Position numbers and translations under genes: made by a program. Of a stretch of 64,000 nt of DNA, positions 6,107 through 18,224 are shown piece by piece. The DNA is taken from contig JBGSRW010000008.1 in NCBI GenBank assembly GCA_041737355.1, forward strand, positions 24,466 through 88,465, written 5' to 3'. The notes beneath the pieces are model-generated. The model worked only from the letters and a program-made list of their open reading frames with translations, searched no databases and had not been told where the DNA came from. Every line of letters starts with the position of its first letter. The stretch's first letter is position 1. This DNA comes from Patescibacteria group bacterium. GTDB taxonomy: Bacteria > Patescibacteriota > Patescibacteriia > XYB2-FULL-38-15.

Positions 6107-6236
6107 TTTGTTCTTGGAGCAAGTAGTCTGTGCAATGCAGACACTGTTCGTCAATCACTCTAAGGTGAACGGCGACAGGATCTTGCTCCAAGTCCTTTTC
6201 CTCCAAATCAGCGTAAGTTGGTCTGGAGAAAAGGGA
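6107..6236. repeat. Direct repeat copy 2 (130 bp), starting the nucleotide after the stop of ORF 5927-6106
   Basis: Near-identical to 5408-5542. Both copies diverge from each other right after ...GGAGAAAAGGGA. Confidence 0.9.
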
Positions 6237-16111: not shown

Positions 16112-16121
16112 GTGCTATAAT
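16112..16121 (+). promoter_or_regulatory. Extended -10 promoter (GTGCTATAAT) upstream of pilin gene 1
   Basis: TGcTATAAT about 84 nt upstream of ATG 16205. Strong RBS AAAGGAGGTGA precedes the gene. Confidence 0.4.
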
Positions 16122-16188
16122 TTATAAATGTGGATAATTGAATATTTAAATCCTATGCTCGTGACTTAGAAGCTTAAAGCCGCGAGCC

Positions 16189-16368
16189 GAAAGGAGGTGA
16201 AAGAATGTTTAAAAATAAAAAAGGTTTCACTTTGATCGAATTGTTGGTGGTTATCGCCATCATCGGTCTTCTCTCGACTTTGGCGGTCGTTGCCTTGAGC
16301 AGCGCCAGAACCAAAGCCAGAGACGCGAAAAGAACTGCCGACATGAAGCAGGTTCAGACAGCCATGGA
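16189..16368 (+). repeat. 180-bp direct repeat copy 1: RBS plus first ~55 codons of pilin gene 1
   Basis: Near-identical to 16740-16919 (a few mismatches). Covers the SD, signal peptide and conserved N-terminal helix. Confidence 0.85.
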
Positions 16369-16648
16369 GCTCTATTATAATACTAATAGCGCTTATCCTT
16401 CATGCGCCGCCGGTACATTGGTTTCGGCTTGCGCCGCCTTAGCACCTGATTACTTGCCGGGCGTTTTGACCCTGAAAGATCCGGGTGGAGTTGCCGGTGC
16501 TTGCGCCGATCCGGCAGCAGCGAAATGTAACTACGCCTTTGGTACTGCCGCAGCGAACGAAGGCTATAGAATTACTTTCTGGCTTGAAGGAGCGACCGGA
16601 GATTTGGCTGCCGGAGCCCACAGAGTTACGGCTATGGGAATCCAGTAA
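16205..16648 (+). CDS. pilA: Type IV major pilin (prepilin, class III signal)
   Basis: MFKNKKGFTLIELLVVIAIIGLLSTLAVVALS is the canonical G|FTLIE prepilin cleavage and N-methylation motif. 147 aa. Confidence 0.85.
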   Translation: MFKNKKGFTLIELLVVIAIIGLLSTLAVVALSSARTKARDAKRTADMKQVQTAMELYYNTNSAYPSCAAGTLVSACAALAPDYLPGVLTLKDPGGVAGACADPAAAKCNYAFGTAAANEGYRITFWLEGATGDLAAGAHRVTAMGIQ

Positions 16649-16739: not shown

Positions 16740-16919
16740 GAAAGGAGGTGAAAGAATGTTTAAAAATAAAAAAGGTTTCACTTTGATCGAATTGTTGGTG
16801 GTTATCGCCATCATCGGTCTTCTCTCGACTTTGGCGGTCGTTGCCTTGAGCAGCGCGAGAACCAAAGCCAGAGATTCAAAACGCGTGGCCGACATGAAGC
16901 AGGTTCAGACAGCCATGGA
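16740..16919 (+). repeat. 180-bp direct repeat copy 2 (5' part of pilin gene 2)
   Basis: See 16189-16368. Confidence 0.85.
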
Positions 16920-17217
16920 AATGGTTTTCAGCGAAGCCAACAGCTACGCCTTGGCTGGATGCACAACGGCCGGTAATAAGGTCAGCCTCTGCACCACGCC
17001 GCTCTCAACTTATTTGCCGAACGTCGCCAATCTTAAGGATCCGAAGGGGTTAAGCGCTTGCGCCGTAGCTTGTGATGGAACAATCACCGCGGCCTGCGAT
17101 TACTCGGTTAAAACCGTGCCGACTGCAAGTACTTACGAGTTTTGTTTCTATTTGGAAACAGCTACGGGCGATTTAGCGGCCGGAGCCCATAAAGTTACGC
17201 CAGCTGGGATTCAATAG
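16756..17217 (+). CDS. pilA: Type IV major pilin paralog 2
   Basis: N-terminal 50 aa identical to pilin 1. Divergent central and C-terminal domain with a conserved end ...TGDLAAGAHKVT. 153 aa. Confidence 0.85.
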   Translation: MFKNKKGFTLIELLVVIAIIGLLSTLAVVALSSARTKARDSKRVADMKQVQTAMEMVFSEANSYALAGCTTAGNKVSLCTTPLSTYLPNVANLKDPKGLSACAVACDGTITAACDYSVKTVPTASTYEFCFYLETATGDLAAGAHKVTPAGIQ

Positions 17218-17244
17218 CCGAATTTTTGATGCATCAAAACAAAA

Positions 17245-17275
17245 GCCCTTTTATCAGGGTTTTTGTTTTTTTTAT
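17245..17275 (+). terminator. Rho-independent terminator after pilin gene 2
   Basis: GCCCT-TTTATC-AGGGT stem extended by A/U pairs, then TTTTTGTTTTTTTT. Confidence 0.5.
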
Positions 17276-17283
17276 AAGGTTTT

Positions 17284-17294
17284 TGTGCTATAAT
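17284..17294 (+). promoter_or_regulatory. Extended -10 promoter TGTGCTATAAT upstream of pilD
   Basis: TGnTATAAT 145 nt upstream of pilD ATG 17439. Confidence 0.45.
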
Positions 17295-17305
17295 TTAATA
17301 ATATG

Positions 17306-17437
17306 CCCCGTTAGAAGTCTTTGACGGAAAAATTTTTTAATAAAATTTTTCCTTGTGGCAGAACGGGGATTATACACGAATTTTTTCTTTTTTAAAAGAC
17401 GCAAATAAACATTTAAAATTATAAACTTCTAACGGGG
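17306..17437 (+). promoter_or_regulatory. pilD 5' leader with three mutually exclusive pairing elements (candidate translational attenuator/riboregulator)
   Basis: CCCCGTTAGAAGT (17306-17318) is the perfect reverse complement of ACTTCTAACGGGG (17425-17437), which abuts the start codon and contains the only SD-like GGGG. A middle decoy AACGGGG sits at 17362-17368. The 5' element can pair with either downstream copy. Confidence 0.35.
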
Positions 17438-17438
17438 T

Positions 17439-18224
17439 ATGGCGCTAATTATCGTCTTTATTTTTGGCTTAGTCATCGGAAGTTTTTTGAATGTCGTAAT
17501 CTGGAGACTGCATACGGGGGAATCGGCTCTAAAAGGCCGCTCTTATTGTCCGAAATGCAAGCACCGCTTGGATTTTTTTGATTTATTTCCGGTCATGAGT
17601 TTTGTAATCCAGGGAGGAAAGTGCCGTTATTGCCGCGAGTCAATTTCCTGGCAATATCCGTTTGTTGAATTGGCTACGGCCGCGCTTTTTGTCATGGCTT
17701 ATGTAATTTCCGATTTTTCCGCCGAAGGAGGATTGGTCTTGGGTAGGCAACTTTTAATTCTGCTGAAGTATTGGTTTGTTGTCTCCGCGATGATTATAGT
17801 TTTTGTTTATGACGCTAAACATTATTTGATTTTGGACAAAGTAATCTATCCCGCGGCAGCCGTCGCGTTTTTTGCCAGTCCGCTTCTTTCGGGAGACGTT
17901 TGGTGGCGGGGAATTCCGGACGGTCTTTTAGCGGCGGCGATCGGCGGCGGATTTTTTCTTTTTCAATATGCCGTGTCAAAAGGAAAATGGATTGGCGGAG
18001 GGGACGTAAAATTGGGATTTTTGATGGGTTTATTTTTAGGTGTTAAGGGTTTGCTTGTGGCTTTCTTTTTTTCTTATTGCCTCGGGGCCGTCGTCGGGCT
18101 TGGTCTTGTCGCGGCCGGCAGAAAAAACATGAAAGGCCAGCTTCCTTTCGGGACTTTTTTGGCCGCCGGAACCCTTATCGCTTTATTTTGGGCCGAACCG
18201 ATCTTGAAATGGTATTTAAATTAA
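17439..18224 (+). CDS. pilD: Prepilin peptidase / N-methyltransferase PilD (A24 family)
   Basis: N-terminal tetracysteine CPKCKHRLDFFDLFPV...GKCRYCRESISWQYP, multiple TMs, 261 aa. Confidence 0.9.
   Translation: MALIIVFIFGLVIGSFLNVVIWRLHTGESALKGRSYCPKCKHRLDFFDLFPVMSFVIQGGKCRYCRESISWQYPFVELATAALFVMAYVISDFSAEGGLVLGRQLLILLKYWFVVSAMIIVFVYDAKHYLILDKVIYPAAAVAFFASPLLSGDVWWRGIPDGLLAAAIGGGFFLFQYAVSKGKWIGGGDVKLGFLMGLFLGVKGLLVAFFFSYCLGAVVGLGLVAAGRKNMKGQLPFGTFLAAGTLIALFWAEPILKWYLN

Follow-up and report, generated by a model that had tools for sequence, protein, structure and literature searches.

What kind of sequence separates the promoter from the start codon of pilD, the prepilin peptidase gene of a type IV pilus operon in a Patescibacteria group bacterium? 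The gene lies in a stretch of 64,000 nucleotides of contig JBGSRW010000008.1 (the window), and an initial annotation had read the segment in front of it as a regulatory leader specific to pilD, in which an anti-Shine-Dalgarno (anti-SD) element could pair either with an SD sequence abutting the ATG or with a decoy SD. The exact complementarity between 17306-17318 and 17425-17437 was confirmed at these coordinates, and so was the second AACGGGG at 17362-17368. However, the segment was found to be one copy of a dispersed family with target-site duplications, similar to miniature transposable elements with inverted repeats (MITEs), and not a leader peculiar to pilD. Judged from its sequence features, 17306-17437 is very probably a non-autonomous, MITE-like insertion of a Patescibacteria-wide family, and the apparent riboswitch-like leader is explained as an insertion at a gene that appears to have been ancestrally leaderless. 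The features of the locus are as follows.

17284 to 17294, plus strand: extended -10 promoter TGTGCTATAAT, with TATAAT at 17289-17294, 8 nt before the ATG at 17303
17302 to 17305, plus strand: left target-site duplication TATG; its ATG (17303-17305) is the putative ancestral leaderless start of pilD and the likely 5' end of the transcript
17303 to 17314, plus strand: micro-open reading frame (micro-ORF) ATG CCC CGT TAG, made of the left start codon and the 5' repeat
17306 to 17437, plus strand: MITE-like element of 132 bp, in sense orientation to pilD
17306 to 17318, plus strand: 5' terminal inverted repeat CCCCGTTAGAAGT, 13 bp, formerly the "anti-SD"
17326 to 17352, plus strand: subterminal A/T hairpin of 11 bp, GGAAAAATTTT-ttaat-AAAATTTTTCC, a hallmark of the family, 17-20 nt from a terminus
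17362 to 17368, plus strand: internal AACGGGG, a conserved repeat of the terminal core that can pair with 17306-17312, formerly the "decoy SD"
17425 to 17437, plus strand: 3' terminal inverted repeat ACTTCTAACGGGG, 13 bp, formerly the arm holding the SD
17438 to 17441, plus strand: right target-site duplication TATG, whose ATG (17439-17441) now starts pilD
17439 to 18224, plus strand: pilD, prepilin peptidase of 261 aa with A24_N_bact and Peptidase_A24 domains

The element at pilD is bounded by inverted repeats and a duplicated TATG

The two terminal repeats, CCCCGTTAGAAGT and ACTTCTAACGGGG, are exact reverse complements of each other, and no further exact copy of either occurs anywhere in the 64-kb window. 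When the flanking ATG and TAT and one G.U pair are counted, the repeat grows to 16 nt (17303-17318 with 17425-17440), and the consensus fold of the pilD-linked copies contains 17 pairs in the terminal stem. The stretch between the internal AACGGGG and the 3' repeat is A/T-rich. The heptamer AACGGGG is under-represented: it occurs 6 times in the window, where 13.5 matches would be expected, and three of the six lie inside the 132-nt element. The family profile, searched with nhmmer, recovered the element on the plus strand at E = 5.4e-20, which was the sole significant match in 64 kb. In addition, the element carries on its minus strand a promoter-like site (17369-17396; TTTAAA, 16 nt, TATAAT) that matches at 10 of 12 positions and would drive antisense transcription toward the pilin gene; the TATAAT of this site is complementary to ATTATA at 17369-17374, and three of the five pilD-linked copies have preserved it.

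Filled and empty loci indicate insertion at a leaderless start codon

The orthologous loci of the closest PilD relatives were collected, and the spacers between the pilin gene and pilD were compared at 12 loci including that of the window (W; L-numbers denote loci from other genomes). Five loci are filled (W, L005, L002, L130 and L132) and carry a segment of 130-132 nt at the same place between TATG repeats, whereas the whole segment is absent from the remaining seven (L006, L007, L131 and L208-L211). The three-motif arrangement is present in all five orthologous leaders that carry the segment, but seven of the 12 lack it altogether. The empty sites carry a single TATG or NATG in the form TATAAT-N8-ATGgcg and read TGnTATAAT, 8-9 nt, ATG and pilD, as in ggTATAATttatcaatATGgcgtta of L007. 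The same order of TGnTATAAT, 8-9 nt and ATG was found in 12 of 12 loci, filled and empty. Because the empty loci consist of a -10 box, 8-9 nt and an ATG with neither a 5' untranslated region (UTR) nor an SD, the geometry between the -10 box and the start codon indicates that the ancestral state of pilD is leaderless. Taken together, the 13-bp terminal inverted repeats, the 4-bp direct duplication and the clean empty sites argue for a transposon insertion into the start codon.

All five filled loci have preserved the extended -10, the spacing of 8 nt and the left ATG; among these loci, the third codon positions of pilD are 43-67% identical and pilD as a whole is 64-82% identical. The pilD-linked copies of the element resemble one another over their full length (76-87% identity), and in the rest of the family the match to W is limited to the 5' 30-70 nt or is weak (~70%) overall. 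The full-length likeness of the five copies points to one origin at the pilD site, and their higher conservation than that of the adjacent coding DNA suggests constraint. The micro-ORF was found in 26 of 27 copies of the TATG type. In L002, a T>C change abolishes its stop and gives an ORF of 24 codons, and the micro-ORF peptide itself is therefore not conserved.

The presence of the element is patchy. L130 is filled and L131 is empty with PilD proteins that are 80% identical, and the filled W, L002 and L005 group with the empty L006 and L007. The only firm groups in a neighbour-joining tree of PilD were {W, L005, L002, L006, L007} and {L002, L005}, the tree being too weakly supported to count gains and losses. 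The patchiness represents either several precise losses or repeated gains at one site. Precise losses could arise by slippage between the 4-bp repeats across the hairpin or by transposase-mediated excision.

The same termini define a repeat family across Patescibacteria

One genome per species was scanned for CCCCGTNAGAAGT and ACTTCTNACGGGG separated by 90-120 nt; exact termini being the search criterion, the invariance of the termini in this sample is partly by construction. The family counts given here (129, 84 and 77 copies) rest on the matches listed, which comprise at least 120 loci from 74 assemblies. The same termini were borne by at least 120 loci in 74 genomes, mostly on elements of 116-145 nt, and the arrangement at pilD is therefore not a product of chance. 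The host labels are nearly all Patescibacteria (Nealson-, Staskawicz-, Uhr-, Kaiser-, Wildermuth-, Taylor- and Jorgensenbacteria, Kazan and "Saccharibacteria"). Some hosts are labelled otherwise, as Gammaproteobacteria (automated TPA (third-party annotation) bins), Omnitrophota, Opitutia and Planctomycetota (L024, L036, L055, L073, L075, L077, L082 and others; L078 and L101; L108; L126); these are probably mislabelled or mis-binned contigs of the candidate phyla radiation (CPR), and horizontal spread may also be involved. At least 11 copies were found in one metagenome-assembled genome.

About 104 of the 129 listed copies (~80%) are flanked by direct repeats of at least 4 bp, and the duplicated target varies (TGAA, TATG, TGGA, TAAA, TTGA, TATA and CTTG). 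Two copies that are 100% identical lie at two different genes of CAYXYS01 with different flanks, which indicates recent movement. When the termini were relaxed, further copies of 45-280 nt were found in which both arms had changed together, and short hairpin-only versions of 45-110 nt occur. The terminal stem of the family consensus is ~17 bp. A perfect, A/T-rich hairpin of at least 9 bp lies 17-20 nt from a terminus in 65 of 84 copies (5 of 840 shuffles); because its stems comprise 52 different sequences, the structure of this hairpin is conserved rather than its sequence. In 37 of 77 copies, the internal AACGGGG is found, with up to one mismatch, at a constant distance after the hairpin, as compared with 4.6 of 77 for shuffled 7-mers. 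All three motifs described at pilD are therefore features of the family.

No conserved ORF was found among the copies, the ORFs opened by the left start codon ending at varied positions and in varied frames. The terminal repeats and the duplications are what suggest mobility by a DDE enzyme. No copy of the family was found on IMG/VR viral contigs. In the searchable literature, the terminus was absent in such a context (one incidental 12-mer match in a mouse paper), and no description of MITEs in Patescibacteria or CPR was found there.

Certain loci carry unusual forms. Tandem, nested and internally palindromic versions occur at L074 (5085-5442), L126 (4381-4520), L043 (1325-1454) and L015 (543-1376), including three elements head to tail, an element within an element and an internal CCCCGTTAGAAAT/ATTTCTAACGGGG hairpin; in L015, a 704-bp duplication bears a copy of the element. 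At L087 (3650-3810), an imperfect duplication of ~12 nt (GAAGAAATTAA / GAAAGAAATTAA) surrounds the start codon in place of the usual 4 bp. The apparently identical 102-nt copies at L064 (2863-2964) and L065 (2147-2248) are one locus on two overlapping contigs of one assembly; since their flanks are reverse-complementary, they represent assembly redundancy and not transposition.

Copies of the family lie on the start codons of intact genes

In 84 of the 129 listed copies, an ORF of at least 60 aa starts at offset -1 or +1 from the edge of the element. Offset +1 corresponds to the duplication T|ATG, and offset -1 to a TGAA or TGGA duplication in which the last G of the element rebuilds a GTG. 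When the empty sites were reconstructed, the codon at the insertion point was ATG in 76, GTG in 4 and TTG in 4 cases, and an in-frame stop lay at a median of 4 codons upstream of it. The products are full-length, diverse and often essential (L11, S18, TopA, ClpB, SecF, ATP synthase gamma, MreB and RNase H); the profile of L11, for example, begins at residue 8 and the Toprim domain of TopA at residue 2. The starts of clpB are occupied in L037, L061, L110 and L111, and those of rpsR in L062 and L105. As clpB was hit in two registers (TATG and TGAA), the same start codon has been used at least twice, independently. Upstream of these start codons, -10 boxes are most frequent at 6-9 nt, a leaderless geometry, and there are practically no SD-like 4-mers.

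About a dozen other copies lie on TTGA|CA, with the duplication TTGA or CTTG followed by C(A), and one side of these reads TTGACA, by which a -35 hexamer is restored there. The TTGACA-type copies (L012, L031, L035, L045, L050, L052, L057, L060, L072, L074 and L104) are located exactly at the upstream edge of -35-like hexamers. Elsewhere, ORFs of 73-766 aa enter the element and are closed by the TAG in its terminus (CCC CGT TAG; L084, L093, L104, L009, L030, L040, L095, L123 and L127), and the element thus also provides stop codons at the 3' ends of some genes. In L086 (~6150-6200) and L023 (~2630-2680), the 3' end of a tRNA (GGTTCGA...CCA-like) lies 0-5 nt before the hit start codon, which hints that tRNA processing may produce leaderless mRNAs in these genomes.

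The hairpin module is promoter-proximal in 44 copies and gene-proximal in 24; hairpins are present at both ends in 11 and at neither in 5. The orientation relative to the gene is thus biased but not strict. The placement on start codons could result from targeting, for example through the melted transcription start of leaderless promoters, or it could result from survival, if the promoter-to-start geometry and the ORF are preserved together solely where the start codon is part of the duplication. The single identical young pair, with both members at start codons, leans towards targeting.

The pilD leader is predicted to bury the start codon

The RNA of 17295-17460 was predicted to fold into a long-range stem of -42.1 kcal/mol (z = -4.8), and none of 200 shuffles was as good. 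The 5' arm has two mutually exclusive partners, the internal AACGGGG and the 3' arm. The 5' domain with the local pairing has -23 kcal/mol (z = -4.6), and in W the alternative fold lies 3.9 kcal/mol above the minimum free energy. In the full 5' UTR, the predicted probability of being unpaired was 0.04-0.16 for the A and U of the pilD AUG in five of five filled orthologs; when the first 25 nt were held single-stranded, that of the A climbed to 0.47-0.98. The folding, therefore, agrees with the proposed competition of the second AACGGGG for the 5' arm and with two alternative pairings, and it adds that the AUG would be buried. The sequestration of an SD did not stand, as the GGGG of the 3' arm ends 0-1 nt before the pilD ATG, which is too close for an SD, and the gene appears ancestrally leaderless.

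None of the five orthologs has a change in the local pairing, and changes of the ACGGGG core are confined to the 3' arm. Two of the three mismatches of the long stem likewise lie in the 3' arm, and L002 has an uncompensated change at the periphery of the 5' arm. A search of the window against Rfam gave no match at the gathering score, and the best permissive matches (E at least 0.2) were unrelated. Nothing in the analysis suggested that a ligand, temperature or a small RNA acts on the segment.

Proposed origin of the leader and rival explanations

We propose that the element inserted into the TATG holding the start codon of a leaderless pilD and so duplicated this start codon. After the insertion, the promoter would face the left TATG copy, and the ORF would begin at the right copy. 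The old promoter would still fire at the left ATG (17303), and the entire element would thereby become the 5' UTR of pilD. At equilibrium, the terminal repeats would form a stem of 13-17 bp burying the pilD AUG, and translation would need the removal of the 5' arm. This might be achieved if a 70S ribosome on the retained 5'-terminal AUG reads AUG-CCC-CGU-UAG and melts the stem, or if co-transcriptional local pairing with the internal AACGGGG keeps the 5' arm occupied; either route would free ACUUCUAACGGGG-U-AUG for SD-independent initiation. Taken as a whole, a MITE-like insertion on a leaderless pilD start, with the element acting as a 5' UTR that masks the AUG, is in our view the best explanation and a likely one. 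That the masked start is opened by initiation at the ancestral start or by kinetic capture of the 5' arm, as the predicted folds would allow, is put forward more tentatively. The net effect is probably a damped expression of pilD coupled to initiation at the ancestral site, and not a switch responding to a ligand or to temperature as had been suggested. A broader scenario can be drawn for the family, in which it is targeted to start codons, which in leaderless genes coincide with transcription starts, or survives only there, its terminal stem serves as a portable initiation cassette for the downstream and often essential gene (by coupling or shunting, when ribosomes loaded at the duplicated ancestral start melt or cross the base of the stem, or by stem cleavage that restores a leaderless mRNA), and the copy at pilD is old, exapted, selected in some lineages and precisely excised in others; we consider this scenario doubtful.

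Several observations weigh against the proposal made for pilD. Compensatory changes, by which the initial annotation would have recognised a selected switch, were found in neither pairing, which counts against such a switch: among the five orthologs, the long stem shows 0 compensatory pairs and 3 uncompensated breaks (one each in three of the five), and the local pairing shows 0 compensatory pairs with a covariation score not above that of shuffles, the five orthologs being too invariant, and the termini of the family sample invariant by construction, for covariation to be read further. In W, the U and G of the AUG stay low (0.27 and 0.11) even with the first 25 nt held open. In copies of the TGAA type, the upstream ORFs span 7-44 codons and have varied ends, and the micro-ORF is thus not general; likewise, the 24 gene-facing copies imply that no orientation-specific RNA domain is essential to the family. 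The identity of 76-87% among the pilD-linked copies could come from a slowly evolving source copy rather than from selection in place, the median best-match identity of unrelated family copies also being ~80%. As for the transposition itself, the at least 120 loci of 8 kb yielded no partner that shares these termini and carries a transposase; neither a pair of termini 0.3-8 kb apart nor a recurring transposase-like ORF was seen in them. Finally, many copies contain weak hexamers resembling a -10 box at 17-21 nt from their 3' end, that of the window being at 17414-17419, and these may mark a promoter inside the element.

If such an internal promoter were the one used, the element would be a neutral passenger, pilD would be transcribed from its 3' part, the 5' arm would be outside the mRNA and the three-way complementarity would have no role in RNA. 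A promoter-like site TTTAAA-17-TAAAAT indeed ends at 17419, 19 nt before the ATG, the -10-like hexamers are enriched at 17-21 nt from the 3' end across the family, and if transcription starts 55 nt upstream, the AUG is predicted to be roughly as accessible as when the 5' arm is held single-stranded (four of five orthologs). However, the upstream promoter, its spacing and the left ATG have remained intact in five of five filled loci despite deep divergence, whereas the putative internal -10 varies among them (TAAAAT, TTAAAT and AAAAAT). An orientation-specific promoter also misfits the 24 copies of opposite orientation and leaves unexplained why the start codon abuts the element, and we regard this explanation as rather improbable. 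The abutting start codon would be accounted for by RNA processing, in which a nuclease specific for double strands or for the base of the stem (RNase III, followed by trimming with RNase J) would cut the terminal stem and yield a leaderless mRNA with its 5' end 0-2 nt from the start codon. Processing would explain a start codon within -1 to +1 nt of the element edge, the tolerance of either orientation, the survival of essential genes inside operons and the absence of an SD, and the consensus stem of the family reaches ~17 bp. In Neisseria, Correia elements present in mRNAs are substrates of RNase III. Furthermore, few ribonucleases are retained by at least 90% of CPR genomes, and both RNase III and RNase J belong to them (PMC12641178). 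On the other hand, a stem of 13-17 bp is short for RNase III, and the stem at pilD does not seem to be under strong maintenance, given its three uncompensated mismatches among the orthologs; processing is thus possible but unlikely.

In place of a transposon, host-encoded palindromic regulatory sites (REP-like or attC-like), spread by recombination or bound by a conserved host protein, would be in keeping with the failure to find a transposase partner in at least 120 loci and with the short hairpin-only versions of 45-110 nt, and the core GTTAGAA / TTCTAAC loosely recalls the core sites of integron attC. They do not accord with the variable 4-bp direct repeats at ~80% of the copies and the clean empty sites, nor with identical copies at two loci of one genome; moreover, the copies are single (one in 64 kb) and dispersed by unrelated genes rather than set in cassette arrays, and we hold this explanation to be very improbable. 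A riboregulator dedicated to pilD, be it a thermometer, a riboswitch or the target of a small RNA working through anti-SD, SD and decoy SD, could draw on the two near-isoenergetic alternative folds in W and on an arrangement kept in five orthologs, where the element (76-87%) is more conserved than the third positions of pilD. The same three motifs nevertheless front unrelated genes in 74 genomes and are missing from seven of 12 orthologs, and neither covariation, SD geometry, an Rfam family nor a conserved pocket-like internal loop was found for the segment, which leaves this idea with hardly any credit. We therefore retain the insertion of a MITE-like element on a leaderless start as the preferred explanation of the pilD leader.

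The pilus operon around pilD

The locus in the window is a type IV pilus operon with the order pilB, pilC, two pilins, pilD and then minor pilins, and the homologues of its PilD bear source names from the Patescibacteria. The second pilin gene ends in a terminator, which sets pilD apart from the pilin transcript and whose hairpin was also found in locus L005.

17236 to 17277, plus strand: intrinsic terminator of the second pilin gene, with the stem 17236-17249 / 17256-17269 followed by a T run

The use of SD sequences is low across the window (25 of 97 long ORFs as compared with 15 of 91 internal controls), and in this organism translation seems to start mostly by SD-independent initiation.

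The promoter region of the pilin (16112-16132) mirrors that of pilD (17285-17305) with 86% identity over 21 nt and has the architecture GTGCTATAAT, 8 nt, ATG. The pilin ORF begins ~75 nt beyond the ATG of this pilD-like promoter and has a strong AGGAGG, and a leaderless mini-ORF of 13 codons with its ATG at 16128 may lie ahead of the pilin gene. The pilin genes are in tandem (16205-16648 and 16756-17217). Over their 5' 180 nt (16189-16368 and 16740-16919), a part that takes in the SD as well as the signal and N-methylation region, the two are 95% identical, and the remainder has diverged.

Significance and comparison with known systems

A single 13-nt terminus defines a repeat family that is spread through the CPR and that was not found described in the searchable literature. 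The copies at start codons form a natural experiment on how organisms with reduced ribosomes manage SD-less initiation beside or within a stable stem, and they bear on whether a bacterial transposon can target the starts of transcription or translation. They also have a practical consequence, as gene callers will misplace starts where a GTG is rebuilt from the last G of the element and will read the elements as long structured 5' UTRs.

A number of other identities were considered for the segment and the family and rejected. A riboswitch, a thermometer or an SD-sequestering leader does not agree with a GGGG ending 1 nt before the ATG, the lack of compensatory pairs and the lack of an Rfam match. 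Integron attC sites are contradicted by the 4-bp duplications and by the occurrence of just one copy in 64 kb, which is located in a conserved type IV pilus operon. The palindromes of IS200/IS605 (PATE) and REP/RAYT are contradicted by the perfect terminal repeats together with the variable 4-bp duplications, and the a1/a2 stem of retrons by these variable duplications, the single dispersed copies and the unrelated neighbours. For a DNA uptake sequence, the window holds just the two arms of one element. Among the functional possibilities, a conserved leader peptide was rejected on the varying length and frame of the upstream ORF, and a stop of the upstream ORF positioned for coupling with the main start was rejected as a general rule on gaps of 4-137 nt and two overlaps. 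A strict sense orientation is contradicted by the counts of 44, 24 and 11, and an orientation-specific internal promoter by -10-like hexamers that are weak and non-conserved.

The features found are those of MITEs: a small size without coding capacity, terminal inverted repeats, a variable 4-bp duplication, dispersed copies, and filled as against empty sites. By analogy, the element can be regarded as a bacterial MITE in kind, closest in behaviour to the Correia elements of Neisseria. Correia elements (CREE/NEMIS), RUP and ERIC are repeats of ~100-150 bp with terminal inverted repeats, short target duplications and many gene-adjacent copies. Elements of the Correia type are co-transcribed into mRNAs, where their repeats form a long hairpin, and can alter the expression of neighbouring genes. 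The family of the pilD element is like them in size, terminal repeats, short duplications and the adjacency of its copies to genes, but its termini are different (13-17 bp, CCCCGTTAGAAGT), its duplication is a variable one of 4 bp and not the TA of Correia elements, and its hosts belong to a different phylum. The most important difference from the Correia elements is a placement that spares the gene: about two-thirds of the copies lie exactly on the first codon of intact genes, such as those of ribosomal proteins, topoisomerase I, ClpB and SecF, this codon being rebuilt by the duplication or by the terminal G. To our knowledge, such exact placement on start codons has not been described for Correia elements.

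Likeness to other mobile or tolerated elements is more limited. The Rickettsia palindromic elements are mobile palindromes of ~100-150 bp that, in a reduced genome, touch essential genes without destroying them. They lie in frame inside ORFs and are translated, whereas the element of the pilD type lies outside the ORF at its first codon and has a length that is not a multiple of 3. Transposons of the piggyBac and IS1380 types have short termini starting with CC(C), target duplications of 4-5 bp and a capacity for precise excision, and may offer a lead for this family; precise excision would fit the patchy pattern of filled and empty sites, but the target of the element is not TTAA. The bypassing elements of T4 gene 60 and the mitochondrial "byps" of Magnusiomyces, the latter being mobile, have matching take-off and landing codons with a stem-loop and are tolerated in essential genes. 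They measure 27-55 nt and lie inside ORFs, as compared with ~130 nt at the initiation codon and no sign of hopping for the pilD-type element.

The proposed opening of the pilD start has its nearest parallels in coupling systems. In the RNA phage MS2 and the erm leader peptides, a buried start is exposed when a ribosome on the upstream ORF covers the other arm, and in the hairpin-bridged initiation of T4 gene 38 the base of a stem brings upstream signals to the start. What would set the present case apart from all three is that a transposable element supplies this architecture ready-made, and does so at dozens of unrelated genes. The upstream ORF would be a by-product of the duplicated start codon and not a conserved leader peptide.

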